Shown: piece by piece, positions 4,303 through 56,471 of the stretch
Numbering within the stretch: the first letter of the stretch is position 1
Layout of the letters: the number at the start of each line of letters is the position of its first letter
IMG/VR virus record: IMGVR_UViG_3300017448_000004
Location: 1-62,155 of that record
Reading direction: 5' to 3' (one strand)
Source of the DNA: a virus
Taxonomy: Duplodnaviria > Caudoviricetes
Length of the DNA: 62,155 bases
Position numbers and translations under genes: made by a program
Notes under the pieces: generated by a model
Told to the model about the DNA's origin: nothing
The model's input: only the letters and a program-made list of their open reading frames with translations
Database searches by the model: none

Positions 4303-4565
4303 TGACCCTCCACCGACTTCGGCAAACGCTTGAGCGTATAACCATTTATCTGTTTGAGGCTGACATACATTTGAAGAAGGTTGAAATTGATCATGTTATA
4401 AGGGAACACGAAAGATTCTTCGACTTCCCCTTGAATATCATCCGTTCGCAGGACAGTTAGACGAGCGAGGTCGCCCACACCGCCCGAACCGTCCATCTTG
4501 ATTGCCCCACCACAATTACAGTTACCGTCTTCGCATGCCATATTCTCCTCCTCAAGAGAACTCAA
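4299..4565 (-). CDS. hypothetical protein
   Basis: ORF overlapping neighbours by ATGA. Confidence 0.5.
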   Translation of the reverse strand: MSSLEEENMACEDGNCNCGGAIKMDGSGGVGDLARLTVLRTDDIQGEVEESFVFPYNMINFNLLQMYVSLKQINGYTLKRLPKSVEGQ

Positions 4566-4972
4566 ACTTTTCCGTGCCGACGTAGGTATTCGATTGCTCT
4601 CTCCAAGGATATGATATTGTCTTGGAAATTACCGAGTGCTTTATTACACCAATCACAAAGTAGTTCTCGGTTCCGACCAGTCTCATGATCGTGGTCAATA
4701 TGCGGAGTGGTGTTCTTGTCTAGGAGGGTAAAATCTCTCCTACATATGGCACACTTATTATCTTGCATTACTAGCTGGGATCGAAACTCCGATTCAGTCA
4801 CCCCGTGTTTATTTAATCGAATCGTAGAAGCCCGGACTTTCTTTGCTTCCGGGCTTCGATTCTTTTCGTATCTTTGATGGTATGCTTTTGTACATATACG
4901 GCATGCTCTCTTCGCATTCAAGTTATCAGGCGTACGAGCGTGGCCATTCTTGCAATGCGTCTTTAGGATCAT
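4562..4972 (-). CDS. endonuclease VII-family nuclease with N-terminal THCKxGH zinc module
   Basis: THCKNGH...CRIC; KCAIC...HIDHDHETG.NRELLCDWCNKALG. Confidence 0.85.
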   Translation of the reverse strand: MILKTHCKNGHARTPDNLNAKRACRICTKAYHQRYEKNRSPEAKKVRASTIRLNKHGVTESEFRSQLVMQDNKCAICRRDFTLLDKNTTPHIDHDHETGRNRELLCDWCNKALGNFQDNIISLERAIEYLRRHGKV

Positions 4973-22435: not shown

Positions 22436-22630
22436 TTATTTCCGTTCTCGAATCTCGGTAGGACTCACGAGAAAGTCGGTAGTAGTGCCACTGGTATTTG
22501 CAGGATGGATGTAGAAGTGGAAAGTTCCGTCTTCGAGTCGGTCGATTCGCAGTGCGTGGTCAATTACCGGATACGGTTTTCGATTCCAGTTTTCAGTGAA
22601 ATAATCAAGCAGTGCTGTTGAGATTGCCAT
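22436..22630 (-). CDS. hypothetical protein
   Basis: ORF in operon register. Confidence 0.5.
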   Translation of the reverse strand: MAISTALLDYFTENWNRKPYPVIDHALRIDRLEDGTFHFYIHPANTSGTTTDFLVSPTEIRERK

Positions 22631-23171
22631 CGGGGAAATTCCTTTTCAGATACTCAATGAGATTTAACAAAATCCCCACACTATCATTCACGTTGCCAAG
22701 GGCTAGATTACACGCATGGCAAAGGATTCCACGAACTTGTTTCGTGGCATGATCGTGGTCAGTGTGCCAACCCCGCCCGCCATGTTCTTTTGATTTGCAA
22801 ACCGCACAACAACTTCCTTGGGCAACGAACATTGCATCACGCTGCTCCACGGTAATTCCGTAGTATGCGAGTTGATGGGCTGCTTTGGATGATCGACGAG
22901 AACAAATCCGACATGCCCGGTAAGGCTGTCCGTTCTTTATAGCGGTAAAAACGGTCTCCGGGGTATATACATGTCCATTGGAGCACCTATCCCGTGAACC
23001 AAAATGGTGCACGCCCTTGGGCAAGGTGGTTTTTCGTAATTTTGCTAAACGAGCGGTTCTACAAATAAGACAAACAGTACGAAAAATACCATTTTCTTTT
23101 TGAACAGAGGTTAGGTTTTCAGGCACCATTTCGTGCCCACGTTTACAGTGTGTTTGTTTTTTGAATGACAT
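22605..23171 (-). CDS. endonuclease VII-family nuclease with two zinc modules
   Basis: THCKRGH, CSNGH...CRIC, HTDHDHATKQVRGILCHACNLALG. Confidence 0.85.
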   Translation of the reverse strand: MSFKKQTHCKRGHEMVPENLTSVQKENGIFRTVCLICRTARLAKLRKTTLPKGVHHFGSRDRCSNGHVYTPETVFTAIKNGQPYRACRICSRRSSKAAHQLAYYGITVEQRDAMFVAQGSCCAVCKSKEHGGRGWHTDHDHATKQVRGILCHACNLALGNVNDSVGILLNLIEYLKRNFPDGNLNSTA

Positions 23172-27714: not shown

Positions 27715-28920
27715 CTACGAGGTTCCGCCGGTGACCGTACATATCAACTCGGCACTGATACTGTCGATGGGCGTTTCGTCCATGACCGTATTGACATCCG
27801 TGAGAAGCGTTCCTTCCGTATTCAGGAAAGTCGGAATCTGGAATTCAACTACGCACTGTCCCGCGACTCGACCGCGAACCGTCCACGGATTGCCGTCTGT
27901 GTCATCGACGGAGACGGGGGCGAAGTAAGTGTTACTGTACTTGCCCGCGTTGGATGGTCGATACCAAGTCGGATTGCTGCTCTGGGGGACGTTGTTAAGC
28001 ACGATTGCGTTCCACCCTGATCCCGATTGACCGGAACCCGCTGCAGGTGCCGTGATGTTGTCAGTAGTACTCAAGGTGACTGCTCCCGTGTTGGCAAGCG
28101 CCCTTCCTGCGAGGGTTCCGCCGCCGAGCGTGATTGTGGTGTGGGCCAGAATCGAACCGACCATATTGGAAGTACCGCCAAAGACGCTAGTGAAAGAACT
28201 TCCGTTCACCCAATAAACGTTCTTTGCCTGTGCGCCATTCGCCAGAAGAACGCTCGCGCCAGACTCCAACGTGATGGTGGAACCCGCAACGAACACAAAC
28301 ACCGCGTTCGGATTCCCCTGTGCATCCAGAGTGATGGATGTCGGGATGTCGAGACTGGAAGCTGGAGCAGAGAAATAGTTTCCAGCCGTGTACGTGTGGT
28401 TATTGGCACCGTTGCCGCCCGTTGAAAGATTGGATAGACCTGATAGCGTTGGAGGCAGTGCTTGGAATAACACGATAGCTGCGGCCAAATCAACCTGAGC
28501 CTGTGTTGCGGTTGCGTCTGCGTAATGGAATACACCGGGAGGCGTCAGGGTGCTTGGCGGAAAATTTGTGACAGACGTTTGGTTATTCGGAGAGATTCCG
28601 ATATTCCCACCCGAAACAGTAGACCCCGCTCCGGTACTTCCCGTAACTGCGGATGCACCAAGAATCGCGAAGTTAGCTGCCGTTTTAAGAAAAATATCCA
28701 ACCCACCCCCACTACTTCCGACCGTTGCACCCGCGTCGTCAATGGCCGAAGATGTTACAACAACGGACCCACCAATAGGGATGTTGACGGTGTACTGGGC
28801 GACACCCCGCGTGTTGGCAACGGGGGTATAGGTTTGCACTACGCCCGTTCCAGTCAATTTTACTGCTGCTGCAACGCCGAGACCGCTCGTAGGAACGCCC
28901 CCGACACTTGAGTTACTCAT
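27715..28920 (-). CDS. putative decoration protein with inserted DUF3494 ice-binding domain
   Basis: FAILGASAVT, AQVDLAAA, ITLDAQGNPNAVFVF, GAQAKNVYW, G.ILA.T.ITL, GRALA..GAVTL. Confidence 0.8.
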   Translation of the reverse strand: MSNSSVGGVPTSGLGVAAAVKLTGTGVVQTYTPVANTRGVAQYTVNIPIGGSVVVTSSAIDDAGATVGSSGGGLDIFLKTAANFAILGASAVTGSTGAGSTVSGGNIGISPNNQTSVTNFPPSTLTPPGVFHYADATATQAQVDLAAAIVLFQALPPTLSGLSNLSTGGNGANNHTYTAGNYFSAPASSLDIPTSITLDAQGNPNAVFVFVAGSTITLESGASVLLANGAQAKNVYWVNGSSFTSVFGGTSNMVGSILAHTTITLGGGTLAGRALANTGAVTLSTTDNITAPAAGSGQSGSGWNAIVLNNVPQSSNPTWYRPSNAGKYSNTYFAPVSVDDTDGNPWTVRGRVAGQCVVEFQIPTFLNTEGTLLTDVNTVMDETPIDSISAELICTVTGGTS

Positions 28921-29600: not shown

Positions 29601-29629
29601 AGAATATCACTTTGTCACTGCTTTGTCAA
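29601..29629 (-). promoter_or_regulatory. sigma70-type promoter followed by a long 5' hairpin
   Basis: TTGACA-N17-TATTCT with extended TG; stem AGTATGGGTGA/TCACCCATACT immediately downstream. Confidence 0.7.
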
Positions 29630-31603
29630 CTAGGAGATTGCAGAGGCTGCATCTATCTGTCGCTGGCGTATCGTAGTATCTGGGCCGAGCGACGTTGTGA
29701 AGTGCACACGGTAGCTGGTCCATCCAGGGATCAACCCTTCCGGATCGGCTACAGTTGGCTCAGCATTCTGCACGATCTTGCATTCGCTTTATTGTTACCC
29801 GTGCAAGGGGATCAGTCATTTCTGCTGATCTCTTACGGTTTCATTCCCGTAATGATCGGACTATCGCACCGCCCAGAAGGGCGTCTTTTCATTTAGTCTC
29901 TCACGGTCGCCGTAGCGTTCCGCCTTATTCCCATCTCAGGGTTCAAGTCAATTAGAAAAGATTTTTTAACCTACATAACTTTCATTAAGTAGGACACCGA
30001 ATTGATGTTTCTCCATTCTCCGTCACCGAATCCGGTATCACCCTTTGCTCCGAGGTTGATGGAGAAGATACCATCGCGACCGAAGATGTAGGTGCGGAGT
30101 GCGGTCAGACCTGTAATACCGCTGTAATTCGAGGTCTGAGTGACCAGATTGGTCTGGTAGAAGTCCACGCCCGTAGAAGGCAGCGTGATGACTTCAGTCA
30201 AATCAACCGAGACGAGACTGTCCATCTTCATCTGGCCCACCGGAGTGTGCTTCAGAATGTCGATTGGGGAATCGTTGCTGTTGTCAGCAAGGACATCACC
30301 CAAAGCGAACGGATGGATAACGCCTGCGAAGCTCTTGGAACCTTCGTCGAACGGGCGCACGCTACGACCCGCCAGCGATTGGACGCTGTTACGAATCTGA
30401 GAGAGCGACAGAGCGGTGAAGCTAGAAGTGCTCGAAGCAGCCAGTTCAATTAGAACCGACGCGTCGATGCTCGATGCACCGTCAGCGGTTGCACGCACAA
30501 GTGCGGACAACGATTCGCCAAGACGGTACGACATTTCACGAGCAACGTTCTCAACGGTGTTATCAATCGCGGTAGCCAAACTCAGCGAACTGAAGTTCGC
30601 GTAATCGGCGTACTCACCGATAGTCGCGGTGGTCGTAAGAACACTGACAGACAACGAAGAACCGACCGTACCTTCCGTGGTCTGTGTGGTGTTAGCGGCC
30701 AACGGAACGTACATGAACATTTCATATTGATTACCACTGTTCATCGGAAGATCGAGACGTTCCGAACATGCGACGAACGGTGTTTGTGCCTTACAAATTT
30801 GTTATTGTTATCTCCATCACTGGAGTCACATTCTACATGTCGCCATGTAGTTCAGACTCTATCTTTACGGCATCACTGCCGATGTTCGACGTATTAGTCG
30901 TTGGGGATGCACCTACGCTCAGCATTGCTTCTTCGTATTTCTTCGCCACTTGACTACGTGAGGAAGCCTTACGATTAAATACTGAGCACCGTCTAGCAAG
31001 GTCAAATCGCTTTACATTCATGTCCCATGTTAAAGGAGTTCTAATGTACTCTAAAGCGAGTAGTGCCTGTTCTCTCTTGAGAATTAAATACGGCAATATC
31101 TCAAGAATGAATGGTTCACGAGCCTTGCCCCGAGGGGCTGTCCATTGATAACCCGGACGTGTTGAGTTCTTCATGGTGTGTTCATATTGTGCCCCACCAT
31201 AATGAAACTGCAACCAATCAGTAAGCCGCTTATCGCCTTGATAGGCAGATATTTCCAATACAGGACGATAGACGAATTTATTTTGACGCTTGTCAAAACG
31301 CTTCGAGATGTAAATAGATATACATCCTTCGCCGTCTATTATCCCCGCAGCATACCCATTATTTTTGGATTGCATTGGAGCCTTTCCTCCGTCTCTGCTC
31401 AAAGAGCCTTTGACGGATATAGTCGAATTTTAAGAACCCTAATGTCAAGGTTCTCACGGAACTTTTTGTCATACCTCTATATTACCACACTCGACGGAAC
31501 TTGTCAAACTGCCTATCTACGGTTTTCCGTGTAAGTCCTATGAAAACTTTACCGTGGACTGGGGCAAGTTAGAAAGCTGATTCCCGGCGGGCGAAAATGC
31601 CAT
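29630..31603 (-). CDS. major capsid protein (N4 gp56-like), 343 aa when spliced from exons 31603-31544, 31473-31448, 30793-30005 and 29786-29630
   Basis: joined exons give one frame MAFSPAGNQLSNLPQSTVKF|YDKKFRENL|KAQTPF...LPMNSG...EG...EYADY...IHP...GEWRNI|ECKIV...ADPEG..PGW.SY; directly after the scaffold gene. Confidence 0.88.
29787..30004 (-). ncRNA. group I intron, ORF-less (capsid intron 3, 218 nt)
   Basis: 5' exon ends in U, intron ends in G; P1 ACAU/GUGU; P10 AUUCG/CGAAU; P7 GACUA/UAGUC; removal restores frame. Confidence 0.9.
30794..31447 (-). mobile_element. group I intron carrying a LAGLIDADG homing endonuclease (capsid intron 2, 654 nt)
   Basis: P1 GAACCU/GGGUUC with U.G; P3 UUCGAC/GUCGAA; P7 GACU/AGUC; terminal G; removal restores ENL-KAQ. 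Confidence 0.9.
30833..31375 (-). CDS. intron-encoded single-motif LAGLIDADG homing endonuclease
   Basis: YAAGIIDGEGCISI; ILPYLILKREQA; 3' end runs into the intron core. Confidence 0.92.
   Translation of the reverse strand: MQSKNNGYAAGIIDGEGCISIYISKRFDKRQNKFVYRPVLEISAYQGDKRLTDWLQFHYGGAQYEHTMKNSTRPGYQWTAPRGKAREPFILEILPYLILKREQALLALEYIRTPLTWDMNVKRFDLARRCSVFNRKASSRSQVAKKYEEAMLSVGASPTTNTSNIGSDAVKIESELHGDM
31474..31543 (-). ncRNA. 70-nt group I-like mini-intron lacking a catalytic core (capsid intron 1)
   Basis: contains in-frame TAG, length not a multiple of 3; P1 AAGUUU/GGACUU with U.G at junction, P10 UCAUA/UAUGA, ends in G; no P3-P7 elements. Confidence 0.7.
31479..31507 (-). promoter_or_regulatory. 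sigma70-type promoter inside the mini-intron
   Basis: TTGACA-N17-TAATAT with extended TG, same class as other promoters in this genome. Confidence 0.7.
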
Positions 31604-41825: not shown

Positions 41826-42398
41826 TCATATTGCCTCCACAATCTTGGGTGCGTTCATCATACTAATATCGTAGTCTAATCTTGCTGCGGTAACGTATTC
41901 CGCCGCCCTAATCATAAGCAGAGGATTCTCGTTCAACATTCCTAGTGCCACATTACAACGGCGGCAAAGAAGGCCGCGAACCTGCTCAGTAATATGACAA
42001 TGGTCAACGCATTGAATTGGTCTATCACAAAATTGCAATGCACACATGCCGCCCTGTTCATGGTACATTATCTTGTAACGTTCGGGAGTCAAACCATATC
42101 TCAATTGACGATTACGTTCAGAACTGTTACACGGTTGTTTCCTACGACGATCTTTGTTTTCCTTATTCCAAAGGGTCGCCCTTTCAACAAGTAGCGCGTA
42201 TCCTGGTTCAGATTTATAATCTCGTTTCCATCCCGCAGCTTTCCGCTTCGCATTATAATCTTTGATGTATTGCGTATCCCGCTTAGCGGAAGCGGCATTG
42301 TGACAGATTCTACAAAAACGATATCCTGTTTTCTTGTTTCGGAGGGTATTTTCAGGTGTAAATTCGTGCCCATGTTTGCAGTGCGTGATGTTTTTCAT
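41826..42398 (-). CDS. endonuclease VII-family nuclease
   Basis: THCKHGHEFTPENT..CRIC; VDHCHIT.QVRGLLCRRCNVALG. Confidence 0.85.
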   Translation of the reverse strand: MKNITHCKHGHEFTPENTLRNKKTGYRFCRICHNAASAKRDTQYIKDYNAKRKAAGWKRDYKSEPGYALLVERATLWNKENKDRRRKQPCNSSERNRQLRYGLTPERYKIMYHEQGGMCALQFCDRPIQCVDHCHITEQVRGLLCRRCNVALGMLNENPLLMIRAAEYVTAARLDYDISMMNAPKIVEAI

Positions 42399-49687: not shown

Positions 49688-51838
49688 ATGACTCTAACAG
49701 AAGAAATCAGAAAAGGCGTCGAAGCTCTCTTCCCTGAGGGCTCCCTTATCGAACTCCGAATCCCGAAGTCGTCAGTAGGAACCATAATTGGATTCTTCCG
49801 TGATAGGGAGAAGTTGATACCGGCGATTGAGGAATACTCTGGTAAGGTTCCCGCCGTATACTATACGCTCAACGCCCCTCCCCCTGAATTGTATGACAAC
49901 GCCCAACTGAAAAACGCGGCTGTAGCGGGGGTACATGGTTGTAAGGACGACGAAGTCATGGTCCGCAACTGGCTTCTGATCGACTGTGATCCTGTACGGG
50001 TAGACTCTGATGGCAAGCCGTTAACTGACCAGAAGGTTTCATCTACAGACGCCGAGAAGGAATCATCTCTTGCGATTGCACAGAAAATCAAAGCGTATCT
50101 CCAGGAAAAGGGATGGCCTCCCCCTGTGACCGCTGATAGTGGGAACGGATATCACCTGCTTTACAATCTCGGAGGTATGCCTTCGACGAAGGAACTGACA
50201 GAGACGGTTCATAAGGCGCTCGAACACCTTGCCCAGAAGTTTAATACAGACATGGTGGGGGTGGATGTCGTAGTCTCCAACCCGTCGCGTATTACGAAGG
50301 CATATGGCTCATTTACAATGAAGGGCACTGCTACGATTGATCGTCCGCACCGTTTCTCCCGTGTCTGCACTGTGGGTGGCCAGGACGCTGTAACGATTAT
50401 GCAGTTGGCCGCGTTAAAGCCGACGCAGGTTGTAGCAAAGAAATCATCCATCGTCATCAAGGCGAAGGCCGCTGAGAAGTATGCTACGACAGATGGCCCC
50501 GAGAAGATGGAAGAATTTCTCGAATGGTATGACATCGCCCACAAGGTAATGGTTCGAGAGAAGAACGGATACAAATGGCAGATCATCCCGTGTCCGTTTA
50601 ACGCAGAGCACAATCTGGGAGAAGTCGCAGTCTTTGTCAATGATGATGGTGGGTACGGATTCAAGTGTTTTCATAATTCTTGCGCTGATAATCACTGGCA
50701 GGAATTCAAGAACCATCTCGAATCTATCTCGGGCAAGAAATTTTTCTGGCAAACGAATGTCGCAACTGCGGCGGCTCCAGATGCGAAGCCCTCTACGAAG
50801 ATAAACGTAAAGAGGGCCAGCAACATCGCGCCCGAGATTTTGAGTTGGCTGTGGCCCAACCGAATCCCGTTTGGCAAATTGACTCTGTTCGCTGGTCACC
50901 CAGGCGTCGGCAAGGGCATGGCAACAATGTACATCGCTGCATGCGCGACTAAGGGTACCGGATGGCATGACTGTACGAATATAAACGCTCCGTCCGAAGT
51001 CATCATCGTGTCTTCAGAAGACGCGGCGGGAGACACCCTCGTTCCCCGTCTCATGGCGGCGGGCGCGGATATGGACAAGGTGATGATCGTATCTGATGTC
51101 ACTACTGACAAGGGAGACAAAGATTTTTCACTACAGACGGATATTCCCGCGCTGCGAGAATTGTTGGAATCAAACCCAGACGTAAAAGTTGTAATCATCG
51201 ACCCGATCATGAACCACATGGGTGGACTGAAAGCGAACTCAGAGCAGGAAGTCCGAGCAGGATTGTCACCGCTTGCAAAACTCGCAGAAAAACACAGTAT
51301 CGCAATCGTACTCGTGACCCATTTTAACAAGAACACGAACTCCGACAGTATCCAGCGCGTCGGTGGCGCGATGGGTATGGTAGGTTCTGTCCGAGTAGCC
51401 TGGACATTCGGGGAAGACAAAGAAGACGGCAAGATGAAGATGTTGCCACTTAAGGCGAATATCGCTCCGAACACGGGTGGGCTGGAGTATCAGATTATGC
51501 CACACGAAGTTTTTATCAACGGGCAGTATGCTTCGGAAGGCCGCATTGTATGGGGCGCAAAGACATGCTCGTCTGTAGATGCCGCGATCAAGTTCAAAGC
51601 TAAAGATGAAAATCCACCGCTGTACCAACTGGCGATGACCTGGCTAACGGAACATCTGTCTGATGGTCAGCCCCACTCTGTCGCAGAGATTATGGTCTCT
51701 GCGGAGTATGCGGGGTTCAAAGAAGACACGCTGGAGATGGCGGTAAAGAAAATAGGCATCGTAAAGAAGACGCATCCCGAGATTCCCGGGCCTTGGTATT
51801 GGCAGATTCCGAAACTGGAGAAAGTTGAAACGGAATGA
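49688..51838 (+). CDS. primase-helicase (AEP-like primase, zinc finger, RepA/AAA_25 helicase)
   Basis: LIDCD, DSGNGYHL, CPF..EH..KCFHNSC, AGHPGVGKG, VIIDP, VTHFNK. Confidence 0.88.
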   Translation: MTLTEEIRKGVEALFPEGSLIELRIPKSSVGTIIGFFRDREKLIPAIEEYSGKVPAVYYTLNAPPPELYDNAQLKNAAVAGVHGCKDDEVMVRNWLLIDCDPVRVDSDGKPLTDQKVSSTDAEKESSLAIAQKIKAYLQEKGWPPPVTADSGNGYHLLYNLGGMPSTKELTETVHKALEHLAQKFNTDMVGVDVVVSNPSRITKAYGSFTMKGTATIDRPHRFSRVCTVGGQDAVTIMQLAALKPTQVVAKKSSIVIKAKAAEKYATTDGPEKMEEFLEWYDIAHKVMVREKNGYKWQIIPCPFNAEHNLGEVAVFVNDDGGYGFKCFHNSCADNHWQEFKNHLESISGKKFFWQTNVATAAAPDAKPSTKINVKRASNIAPEILSWLWPNRIPFGKLTLFAGHPGVGKGMATMYIAACATKGTGWHDCTNINAPSEVIIVSSEDAAGDTLVPRLMAAGADMDKVMIVSDVTTDKGDKDFSLQTDIPALRELLESNPDVKVVIIDPIMNHMGGLKANSEQEVRAGLSPLAKLAEKHSIAIVLVTHFNKNTNSDSIQRVGGAMGMVGSVRVAWTFGEDKEDGKMKMLPLKANIAPNTGGLEYQIMPHEVFINGQYASEGRIVWGAKTCSSVDAAIKFKAKDENPPLYQLAMTWLTEHLSDGQPHSVAEIMVSAEYAGFKEDTLEMAVKKIGIVKKTHPEIPGPWYWQIPKLEKVETE

Positions 51839-52362
51839 AAAACGAATTAGGAAAACGTTACGGGCGGCTGGTTGTCAAAACTATTACCCCTAAACGAAAA
51901 TTCGGACAGATCATTTGGAAATGCGTCTGCGATTGCGGAAATAAAAAATCCGTTCTTAGTTCCTATCTTCGTTTCGGGGTTACCCGTAGTTGCGGATGTT
52001 TGCGGAACGAGGATAAACGTTTGGAACTCGGGGAATCATCGCGTCGTCTCCTATTTCGTTCATATAAAAATTCTGCGCGTAAACGTGGCCATTCGTGGGG
52101 ATTATCTAAACGGGAATTCTTTAGGTTGGTTGCGAAGAACTGTCATTACTGCGGGGCTATCCCTAGGCAGATTTATCGACCTAATAGACAATCATTTGGT
52201 TCGTTCACTTATAATGGAATCGACAGGGTAGAGAACCTTCGAGGATATTGTAGCGGAAATGTGGTAACGTGTTGCACCACATGCAACGTCGCAAAAGGAA
52301 TCATGCGAGGCTCTGATTTTCTCGCATGGGTACGGAGGGTCTATGAAACGTCTGTGGCTTGA
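51835..52362 (+). CDS. HNH homing endonuclease
   Basis: GKRYGRL.V..WKC.CDCG..SCGC; CHYCG..NGIDRV...GY...NVVTCC..CN; paralogue of 28962..29549. Confidence 0.85.
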   Translation: MKNELGKRYGRLVVKTITPKRKFGQIIWKCVCDCGNKKSVLSSYLRFGVTRSCGCLRNEDKRLELGESSRRLLFRSYKNSARKRGHSWGLSKREFFRLVAKNCHYCGAIPRQIYRPNRQSFGSFTYNGIDRVENLRGYCSGNVVTCCTTCNVAKGIMRGSDFLAWVRRVYETSVA

Positions 52363-55110: not shown

Positions 55111-55551
55111 ATGGAAGACATGGACAAAGTCCGAAAACGACAACGTGAATGGGTCGCAAAGCGTAGGCAGGAGTGGTTTGCTTCAAATGGGCCTTGTAAA
55201 AGTTGTGGGGCCGTTGAAAATTTGGAACTCCATCACGTTGATCGTTCGACGAAAGAAGAACACAGAATTTTCTCTTGGGCGGTAGGCCGTAGAGATGCGG
55301 AACTGGCTAAATGCATCGTACTGTGCCACGATTGCCATGTGATAGAGACGGCGGGACAAATAAAGGAATTTCGTCCCGTCAATCACATACATGGCCGACA
55401 AACAGAATATCGTCGTGGTTGTCGTTGCGAACTTTGTAAAACCGCAAAGCATAAAGCCATAAAAGATGAACGTATGAAGAAACAAGCAGCGGTTGTGGAC
55501 GGCGGTTCGAATCCGCCCATCTCCACTGAGAGCACGGTATGCGTGCTTTGA
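55111..55551 (+). CDS. HNH endonuclease overlapping the tmRNA acceptor piece
   Basis: CKSCG..NLELHH.D...K...ELAKCIVLCHDCH; HG....Y..GCRC..CK. Confidence 0.8.
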   Translation: MEDMDKVRKRQREWVAKRRQEWFASNGPCKSCGAVENLELHHVDRSTKEEHRIFSWAVGRRDAELAKCIVLCHDCHVIETAGQIKEFRPVNHIHGRQTEYRRGCRCELCKTAKHKAIKDERMKKQAAVVDGGSNPPISTESTVCVL

Positions 55552-55728
55552 GTGGGGATGAAAGGCATTCGACATGGCTGATTTGTTTGTTTTGGACGTT
55601 CCGTGCTGACGTGGCACACGTACTCTAGACACGTAACTATCAAATGCTACCAAGCCTTTGACTTTTGCAGCCGCCGCAGGGCGCTAACTGCTAACGGGTC
55701 TGACCCACCTAGGAACAGAACGGGTCTT
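55478..55728 (+). ncRNA. ssrA: circularly permuted two-piece tmRNA
   Basis: acceptor piece T-arm GGCGGTTCGAATCCGCC-CATCTCCA (to 55525), intervening hairpin, coding piece GGGGATGAAAGGCATTCGAC from 55554, G3.U70 pair, tag frame 55646-55687. Confidence 0.88.
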
Positions 55729-56210: not shown

Positions 56211-56471
56211 ATGAAAGTTACCGTTGTTCCAGCATACGTAGGTCAAAAACACACTGTGAAATTGACACAGGGCGTGCAATCTTTTCATCTCGATTATCAA
56301 GGAACGAAGACCGATTGTCTTTGGTACGCAAAAATGTTTCGCACGGCTTTACGAAATCACGATGCCGCTGTAGCTCAGTCGGTAGAGCGCCTGCCCTGTA
56401 AGCAGGATGTCGGGAGTTCGAATCTCTCCAGCGGCTCCAACCCCTTACAACTTCACGGAGCCAGTCTGTGA
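56211..56471 (+). CDS. hypothetical protein whose frame runs through tRNA-Thr
   Basis: AGGAGG SD before MKVTVVP. Confidence 0.45.
   Translation: MKVTVVPAYVGQKHTVKLTQGVQSFHLDYQGTKTDCLWYAKMFRTALRNHDAAVAQSVERLPCKQDVGSSNLSSGSNPLQLHGASL
56364..56439 (+). tRNA. tRNA-Thr(TGT) with encoded CCA and atypical C33
   Basis: acceptor GCCGCTG/CAGCGGC, D-arm GCTC/GAGC, anticodon arm CCTGC-CCTGTAA-GCAGG, TTCGAAT T-loop. Confidence 0.88.

Follow-up and report, generated by a model that had tools for sequence, protein, structure and literature searches.

In phage T4, endonucleases encoded within introns have private promoters together with hairpins that sequester their ribosome-binding sites, the logic known from I-TevI (as set out in the passages of PMC2988022 that we draw on). 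Putative degenerate group I introns of 56 to 81 nucleotides (nt) have been described in fungal small-subunit ribosomal DNA (Harris and Rogers 2011, PMC3160393, in the portion used here), and the 50-nt coding gap of T4 gene 60, found with the mobA cassette, has been suggested to derive from a degenerate intron (Bonocora et al. 2011, cited within the relevant part of PMC5009743). Here, we analyze a 70-nt insert, the mini-intron, in the major capsid gene of a tailed virus (Caudoviricetes; IMG/VR record IMGVR_UViG_3300017448_000004). The whole record of 62,155 bases, with a completeness of ~65%, is referred to as the window. The mini-intron contains a promoter-like motif and lies upstream of a group I intron that encodes a LAGLIDADG endonuclease. 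We consider it moderately probable that the motif is a genuine sigma-70-like promoter, a relic of a decayed LAGLIDADG intron, which would now transcribe the neighboring nuclease gene. As such, it appears to be a variant of a known regulatory kind within an apparently undescribed class of intron stumps.

The major capsid protein of the window is 80% identical to its homologue in the Tunturiibacter phage Tunturi_3, a podovirus infecting an acidobacterium; the passages of PMC11924767 consulted on this phage contain no mention of introns. Tunturiibacter is the host of the relative only; for the uncultured window phage, an acidobacterial host is probable. The Tunturi_3 capsid gene is uninterrupted and has 343 codons, whereas its counterpart in the window is split into four exons, with all features of the locus on the minus strand:

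31603-31544, minus strand: capsid exon 1, codons 1-20, ending in ...STVKF, colinear with the Tunturi_3 major head protein P0001
31543-31474, minus strand: mini-intron, 70 nt, core-less, between codons 20 and 21, with U before it and G as its last base
31507-31502, minus strand: -35 hexamer TTGACA, 6/6 consensus matches
31487-31479, minus strand: extended -10, consisting of TG (31487-31486), one base, and TAATAT (31484-31479; 4/6 matches)
31473-31448, minus strand: capsid exon 2, 26 nt, codons 21-29, YDKKFRENL
31472-31359, minus strand: 37-codon frame with its ATG (31472-31470) at the predicted +1, leaderless in appearance
31447-30794, minus strand: intron 2, a 654-nt group I intron with the LAGLIDADG gene
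31417-31412 with 31393-31388, minus strand: P2-like stem, UCCGUC with GACGGA, plus an inner hairpin; minimum-energy fold z of -2.84
31375-30833, minus strand: LAGLIDADG gene, 180 amino acids, single motif, I-MsoI/I-CreI-like
30793-30005, minus strand: capsid exon 3
30004-29787, minus strand: intron 3, 218 nt, no open reading frame (ORF)
29786-29630, minus strand: capsid exon 4

When joined in silico, the reading frame across the two upstream junctions is colinear with the Tunturi_3 capsid protein. For comparison, we used 80 of 243 capsid relatives, and 69 of these 80 loci gave one colinear match. Breakpoints of blastn alignments against uninterrupted relatives place the insert boundaries at 31543/31473, with a possible 1-nt T slide, in agreement with spliced alignment. 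In run X1, a divergent intron-less contig skips exactly 70 nt (31472->31543) and also intron 2; all four runs are DNA contigs, and this joined form belongs to the genome of a relative that lacks the introns rather than to a spliced transcript. Exon 2 takes part in pairings with both neighbors: P10 of the mini-intron involves its first 5 nt, and P1 of intron 2 its last 8 to 9 nt. The group I status of the full introns rests on splice-site rules, P1 and P10, and P7-like letters judged by eye. Rfam gave a weak RF00028 match in intron 2 (30970-30833, 24.7 bits, E of 8.7e-4), far below the gathering score, no match in intron 3 at E values as high as 1, and none within the 70-nt insert at values as high as 10. 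An intein reading of intron 2 was rejected, since exon, ORF, and leader each use a different frame and that of exon 2 runs into a stop inside the intron.

The earlier note on this DNA had placed the sequence TTGACA-N17-TAATAT with an extended TG wholly inside the 70-nt insert, and this is where the motif lies (31507-31479, within 31543-31474). Sigma-70 features were scored as a -35 near TTGACA, a -10 near TATAAT (A2, T6), a spacer of 16 to 18 nt, and TG. With a 17-nt spacer, 10/12 matches, and TG, the mini-intron site is the sole promoter-like site from the capsid start to the LAGLIDADG ORF. Sites with at least 10/12 matches and TG number five in the whole window (expected, 0.52 ± 0.73 in 100 first-order Markov sequences), an about tenfold excess, and four of the five are directly upstream of a nuclease gene or remnant. 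These five strong sites and a sixth site without TG are as follows:

31507, minus strand: strong TG site, precedes the LAGLIDADG gene
29629, minus strand: strong TG site just past the capsid stop codon, precedes an HNH gene (phrog_1035, phrog_374)
48529: strong TG site in a divergent intergenic region, precedes an EndoVII-like gene (PF02945)
7555, minus strand: strong TG site, precedes a truncated 48-amino-acid ORF
57395: strong TG site with no nuclease gene downstream
23207, minus strand: 11/12 matches without TG, precedes the EndoVII gene 23171..22605 (PF02945, 1e-21)

The 48-codon ORF (7526-7380, minus strand) is apparently a truncated remnant behind TTGACA-17-TATTCT with TG; it has no family match, and its start resembles a GIY-YIG N terminus. 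At least nine nuclease-like genes occur in the 62 kb. The other four are not preceded by such a site, although one has a 10/12 site (42559) ~130 nt upstream. Additional paralogues of EndoVII-like and HNH-like genes are located at 184-597, 4562-4972, 41826-42398 (minus strand), and 51835-52362 (plus strand). No terminator-like site was found between the predicted start at 31472 and the LAGLIDADG gene. On comparative grounds only, the motif acts like a genuine sigma-70-type promoter serving a homing endonuclease gene. The proposal of the earlier note that it drives the nuclease thus gains comparative support from the motif enrichment, the position before nuclease genes, and the lack of any other site before the ORF; the retention of a stem strand in the predicted transcript, discussed below, speaks against it. 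As in the T4 systems, an endonuclease gene in a phage group I intron would have its own promoter within the transcription unit of the host gene. Unlike in T4, the candidate promoter is of the housekeeping type rather than a middle or late one, and it is found in a separate 70-nt stump, one 26-nt exon upstream of the intron of the endonuclease.

Short inserts of 32 to 98 nt recur in the capsid genes of the relatives, in which full introns measure ~200 to 750 nt. We catalogued 20 such mini-inserts at about ten sites in 14 locus types, with the following carriers among Tunturi_3-like phages:

Mini-insert carriers: the window (31543-31474), L031, L044, L076, L078, L084-L086, L093, L101-L104, and L112

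All 20 are preceded by U and end in G. In each, the last exon bases pair with the insert to form P1 (6 to 10 bp, with a U.G pair at the 5' junction), and loop bases beside the guide strand pair with the first bases of the next exon to form P10 (4 to 10 bp). The P1/P10 score was matched by none of 300 shuffled inserts for 16 mini-inserts and by 1 to 6 of 300 for the other four; the window insert, with a P1 of 6 bp and a P10 of 5 bp, is one whose score was reached in 5/300. The guide strand changes along with exon differences between phages (q940 series, by eye). None of the 20 has room for a catalytic core: in the window, ~57 nt are left after P1, too few for P3 to P9 with the guanosine-binding site. 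Judged by its pairings and length, the 70-nt insert is one that works like a group I substrate, not like a self-sufficient member of the group.

The next interruption downstream of a mini-insert is a full intron in 20 of 20 cases, 21 to 215 exon nt away (for L086 q940, at a locus end, only the 5' part of this intron is visible, and for L112 only the 5' part was inspected), and among the compared loci, mini-inserts are absent from capsid genes that lack a full intron. The same sites hold full introns in other phages, between codons 20 and 21 in L101, between codons 22 and 23 in L057, L077, and L079, and around codons 53 to 54 in several. We therefore read the mini-inserts as deletion stumps of full introns that retain P1, P10, and the terminal G, and that are presumably excised by the core of the neighboring intron. 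A swap of P2 strands, in which UUCCGUC of the stump would pair with GACGGAG of intron 2 and so borrow its core, fits the window, L084, and L085 by eye; it was rejected as a general mechanism, as the stumps of L104 and of L086 at q155 lack that strand.

Like the small fungal introns, the mini-inserts are very short and keep P1 and P10, with most of the core absent. The fungal ones are located in nuclear rRNA genes and, in the portion of PMC3160393 used here, are described with P7 and claimed to be self-splicing; the phage mini-inserts differ in interrupting a protein-coding gene, in always lying upstream of a full group I intron at the distances given above, and in that a phage mini-insert carries a promoter. 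Gene 60, according to the relevant part of PMC5009743, is read by bypassing between matched GGA codons. Translational bypass was rejected for the mini-inserts: matched take-off and landing triplets are present in 0/20, the last exon and last insert triplets differing in every case (TTT and AGG, respectively, in the window). The mini-inserts further differ from gene 60 in keeping P1, P10, the U before the insert, and the terminal G, with compensatory changes. In the main texts of the literature searched, neither a pairing of core-less mini-introns with full introns in phage genes nor the survival of a promoter in an intron stump in such genes was described.

The origin of the promoter can be sought in the full LAGLIDADG introns. 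The protein encoded by intron 2 matches phrog_5046 (1.2e-16), I-MsoI (E of 9.3e-6), and I-CvuI (0.0024), as well as PF00961 at a level below the curated cutoff (E of 0.0068; 17.7 bits versus 23.1). Its relatives are 72 to 76% identical over residues 1-180 and 76% identical over residues 1-167, and full-length ones occur inside capsid introns. From the 5' end, the LAGLIDADG introns of this family are ordered as P1, a TTGACT/TTGCTA box, a 5' stem strand (UCCGUC or UCGGUG), and a variable inner hairpin; the matching 3' strand (GACGGA or UACCGA) leads directly into the Shine-Dalgarno (SD) sequence GGAGGAAAG and the ORF. In the window, the 3' strand of the P2-like stem overlaps the SD GGAGG (31390-31386), which is predicted to be buried in the minimum-energy fold. 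Across 16 sequences, pairing of the stem holds in 100% of cells, with compensatory changes at two of its six pairs, and its covariation score was reached by 0/500 shuffles.

Between the 5' splice site and the ORF, 11 of 17 LAGLIDADG introns have a promoter-like site (at least 8/12 matches), in which a TAnnnT hexamer lies in the inner hairpin 16 to 18 nt past the box, often with TG. The sequence of this hairpin is different in each family member. The -10-like hexamers are thus kept while the hairpin varies, which fits selection on the DNA rather than on the RNA. A transcript from such an internal promoter would start past the 5' strand of the stem, so that the ribosome-binding site is predicted to be free in these 11 introns. 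As in T4, then, RNA structure would cover the ribosome-binding site in long transcripts (a prediction for the window), and in 11/17 relatives the placement of the promoter frees the transcript of the inhibitory strand. The window departs from this pattern, as its predicted transcript retains that strand and begins with AUG. Intron 2 itself has a spoiled box and no -10, with 0 sites of at least 8/12 from the 5' splice site to the ORF.

These data also bear on the idea that the letters serve the RNA, in folding of the mini-intron or in its docking on the neighboring ribozyme, and that their likeness to a promoter is accidental. In the full introns, the -35-like letters abut the covarying stem, so their conservation could be partly structural, and in the minimum-energy fold of the mini-intron the -35 pairs with the spacer. 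However, this region folds no better than its shuffles (z of -0.11), the mini-insert of L086 lacks these letters although it comes from an assembled viral contig and is presumably viable, and the -10-like hexamers of the full introns keep TAnnnT at 16 to 18 nt in ever-different hairpins. We regard such an RNA element as very unlikely.

The promoter of the mini-intron aligns to the internal promoter region of the family, across the box, ..TCCGTC.., and the -10, its -35 TTGACA corresponding to the TTGACT/TTGCTA of the full introns. Because of this alignment, the insert is, as far as homology tells, the stump of a second LAGLIDADG intron, namely, the first ~69 bases of the former intron plus the terminal G. 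The earlier note had seen the mini-intron as a device for housing a promoter within an essential gene; the homology to full introns does not bear this out as an origin and instead makes the promoter a relic. L086, the only phage with a mini-insert homologous to that of the window, carries it at the same site in a 50-nt form with the promoter broken by deletions, and its full intron keeps TTGCTA-17-TACTAT. Intact promoter-like sites are borne by three types of mini-insert:

Window mini-intron: TTGACA-17-TAATAT, TG
L076 mini-insert: TTGACA-17-TAAACT, TG
L112-type mini-insert (9 contigs): TTGACA-17-TATACT, TG

Could the motif be a chance match in a short, AT-richer insert? Lenient promoter-like matches do occur at background density, with nine sites in the 7.5-kb neighborhood versus 9.7 ± 3.7 in shuffles, and this lack of local enrichment tells against our explanation as well. 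By our own arithmetic, though, a stretch of 70 nt should hold only ~3e-4 sites of such quality. The site also has its homologue in the promoter region of the family, and the motif recurs in the mini-inserts of L076 and L112. A chance origin therefore seems extremely improbable.

Mini-borne and internal promoters are distributed in a complementary manner. All three promoter-bearing mini-inserts precede LAGLIDADG introns without an internal site. Nine mini-inserts without a promoter likewise lie ahead of LAGLIDADG introns, and in eight of these cases, L085 being the exception, the intron has an internal site (one-sided Fisher test, P = 0.018; P = 0.045 at a 9/12 cutoff, where the 8/12 site of L086 is uncounted). 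The compared loci are related, so the test overstates their independence and the complementarity is suggestive only. As intron 2 appears to have lost its own internal promoter, the stump promoter is likely the private promoter of the window nuclease, independent of capsid gene transcription.

The explanation that we favor, a relic promoter in present use, can be laid out as follows. A complete LAGLIDADG group I intron would once have inserted between capsid codons 20 and 21, with a promoter serving its nuclease gene. It would then have lost the ORF and the ribozyme core, leaving a stump with P1 and its U.G pair, P10, the promoter, and the terminal G, while intron 2 would have lost the internal promoter that most relatives retain. 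Host RNA polymerase would start at ~31472, independently of capsid transcription, and produce a transcript of the 26-nt exon 2 and all of intron 2, with the intact LAGLIDADG gene 97 nt downstream. This transcript would be used for nuclease synthesis, and the stump would be excised by the neighboring ribozyme core. The promoter would thereby have come apart from its own gene, being kept in a 70-nt stump that faces a neighbor intron with a decayed promoter. If it is active, selfish elements piled up in one phage gene share parts, one providing transcription and the other presumably catalysis, which would explain the tolerance of a non-self-splicing fragment in an essential capsid gene.

Besides the background density of lenient sites and the relatedness of the loci, several observations weigh against this explanation. 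Promoter-like sites of both kinds, mini-borne and internal, are missing from L085, and 6 of the 17 LAGLIDADG introns lack an internal one. Only two variants of the window's mini-insert are present in the scanned collections: pattern scans of the viral collection returned the window's twin contig and the contig of L086, and a metagenome scan returned the same contig and three unrelated chance matches. The predicted transcript from 31472 retains the 5' strand of the SD-sequestering stem (31417-31412), unlike those from the internal promoters of the family, and may therefore be translated into nuclease only inefficiently. The persistence of the promoter may also be due merely to a recent deletion.

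Some of these points would be in keeping with an inert relic, a leftover promoter without a present role. Abundant late capsid pre-mRNA or excised intron RNA would then be the template for nuclease synthesis, and a recent deletion would lie behind the stump. The stump is demonstrably a deletion derivative, and other stumps end at arbitrary points, those of L104 and of L086 at q155 stopping right after a -35 remnant; moreover, L085 and five other introns do without any private promoter-like site. Nevertheless, the housekeeping holoenzyme should bind a site with 10/12 matches and TG whatever the history of that site, and the mini-borne and internal promoters are complementary in distribution. 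The TTGACA of the stump is also a better match to the -35 consensus than the TTGACT/TTGCTA of the family, and two q65 variants retain both hexamers despite changes at two positions of the spacer and at several of the flanks, with the -35 unaltered and the -10 changed toward the consensus (by eye). We consider an inert relic rather unlikely.

A further question concerns the position of the predicted start. Leaderless mRNAs start at the A of their AUG, as does lambda cI transcribed from PRM. The ATG at 31472 lies 6 nt past the -10, so that the predicted +1 falls on the A of an AUG, as the earlier note had proposed. The same spacing of exactly 6 nt is found at 7 of 77 promoter-like sites (at least 9/12 matches) in the window, versus 1.27 expected (binomial P = 2.9e-4), and at 6 of the 14 sites that have an exact TTGACA and at least 10/12 matches. 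Three such ATGs open ORFs of 188, 178, and 168 codons. Elsewhere than at 31472, the sites with this spacing are as follows:

23207, 39463, and 7555, minus strand, and 24379 and 59973, plus strand: -10, 6 nt, and ATG, before three long ORFs and two short frames

Going by these counts, an AUG start seven bases past the -10 is a recurring gene-start design in the window phage, and the predicted start at 31472 is therefore credible. The relatives of the EndoVII gene at 23171 are too diverged to inform on conservation of the leaderless arrangement. The locus resembles leaderless mRNAs in having an AUG at the predicted start without an SD sequence. It differs from them in that its start is a predicted one, not a mapped one, and in that the AUG is drawn from capsid codons 21 and 22 in another frame. 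A start at the 3' splice site holds for the window but is not general, as the predicted starts of the L076 and L112 mini-inserts lie 13 to 14 nt inside the insert and open no equivalent frame.

From 31472, the 37-codon frame crosses exon 2, then P1 and the P2-like stem, and continues over the SD into the beginning of the LAGLIDADG gene. It stops at 31359, 14 nt beyond the LAGLIDADG ATG at 31375, and when intron 2 is removed in silico, it ends at a TGA (30743-30741) that overlaps the capsid ATG at 30744; both ends agree with those given in the earlier note. The promoter might serve mainly to express this leaderless frame, whose product would be a small peptide or whose translation would open the P2-like stem and be coupled to initiation of the LAGLIDADG gene; the latter extends the proposal of the earlier note that leader translation could unfold intron 2. 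The spacing of the ATG, shared with three long ORFs, would suit such a role, as would the path of the frame across the stem, SD, and start in a transcript that needs its SD freed. But a 37-codon open frame is not significant by itself (~0.2 by chance, by our own estimate), and its ATG consists merely of capsid Tyr-Asp codons. By hand reading, a stop ends the leader frame of L086 after 14 codons, the promoter being absent from that mini-insert as well, and the promoters of the L076 and L112 mini-inserts come without an equivalent frame. We find it highly improbable that this frame is the main product.

A more ambitious form of the relic promoter explanation would make the two introns a two-part selfish unit. 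The ribozyme of the neighbor would excise the stump via the P1 and P10 of the stump, the stump would give the neighbor's nuclease its only promoter, and leaderless translation of the 37 codons would melt the SD stem and couple to the LAGLIDADG start. We think this unlikely as a whole. The mutual dependence of the introns suggested in the earlier note is nevertheless plausible, in that 20/20 mini-inserts are followed by a full intron and the promoters are complementary, with the reservation that the loci are related. If the two-part unit is real, pairs of mini-inserts and full introns would represent a general route, so far undescribed, by which group I introns in decay are retained in the structural genes of phages. 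The mini-intron class makes the question of whether one core serves two introns directly testable in vitro.

The promoter spacer (31501-31489) and exon 2 (31465-31453, minus strand) share a 9-nt exact match with flanking matches. Exon 2 is the left flank of the homing site of intron 2, and the match may reflect gene conversion, an operator, or chance (a rough estimate of 0.004 by chance, before multiple looks). An I-CreI-like enzyme contacts the central 22 bp of its site. The operator reading was rejected, as the shared part lies outside these 22 bp and the aligned core has 3/11 matches by eye; autorepression is not claimed.

Downstream, the HNH gene (29547-28962, minus strand) lies just past the capsid stop codon, behind its own promoter-like site at 29629. 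A long perfect hairpin (29600-29565, minus strand, read by eye) follows right after the predicted start of that site, upstream of the ribosome-binding site of the HNH gene. In L048, the intron at the site equivalent to window intron 3 is 775 nt long (L048 682-1456) and contains an ORF whose start resembles, by eye, this free-standing HNH gene. Downstream of the capsid and HNH genes, a 401-amino-acid protein (27715-28920, minus strand) has an ice-binding-like domain (PF11999, 2.2e-38); the annotation at the corresponding place in Tunturi_3 is tail fiber. Elsewhere in the window, Rfam identified a permuted (two-piece type) transfer-messenger RNA (tmRNA) and a tRNA at 55468-55681 (plus strand) and 56364-56436 (plus strand), with the tmRNA at 71.4 bits and an E of 9.4e-12. 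A permuted tmRNA seems unusual in a phage of a probable acidobacterial host.

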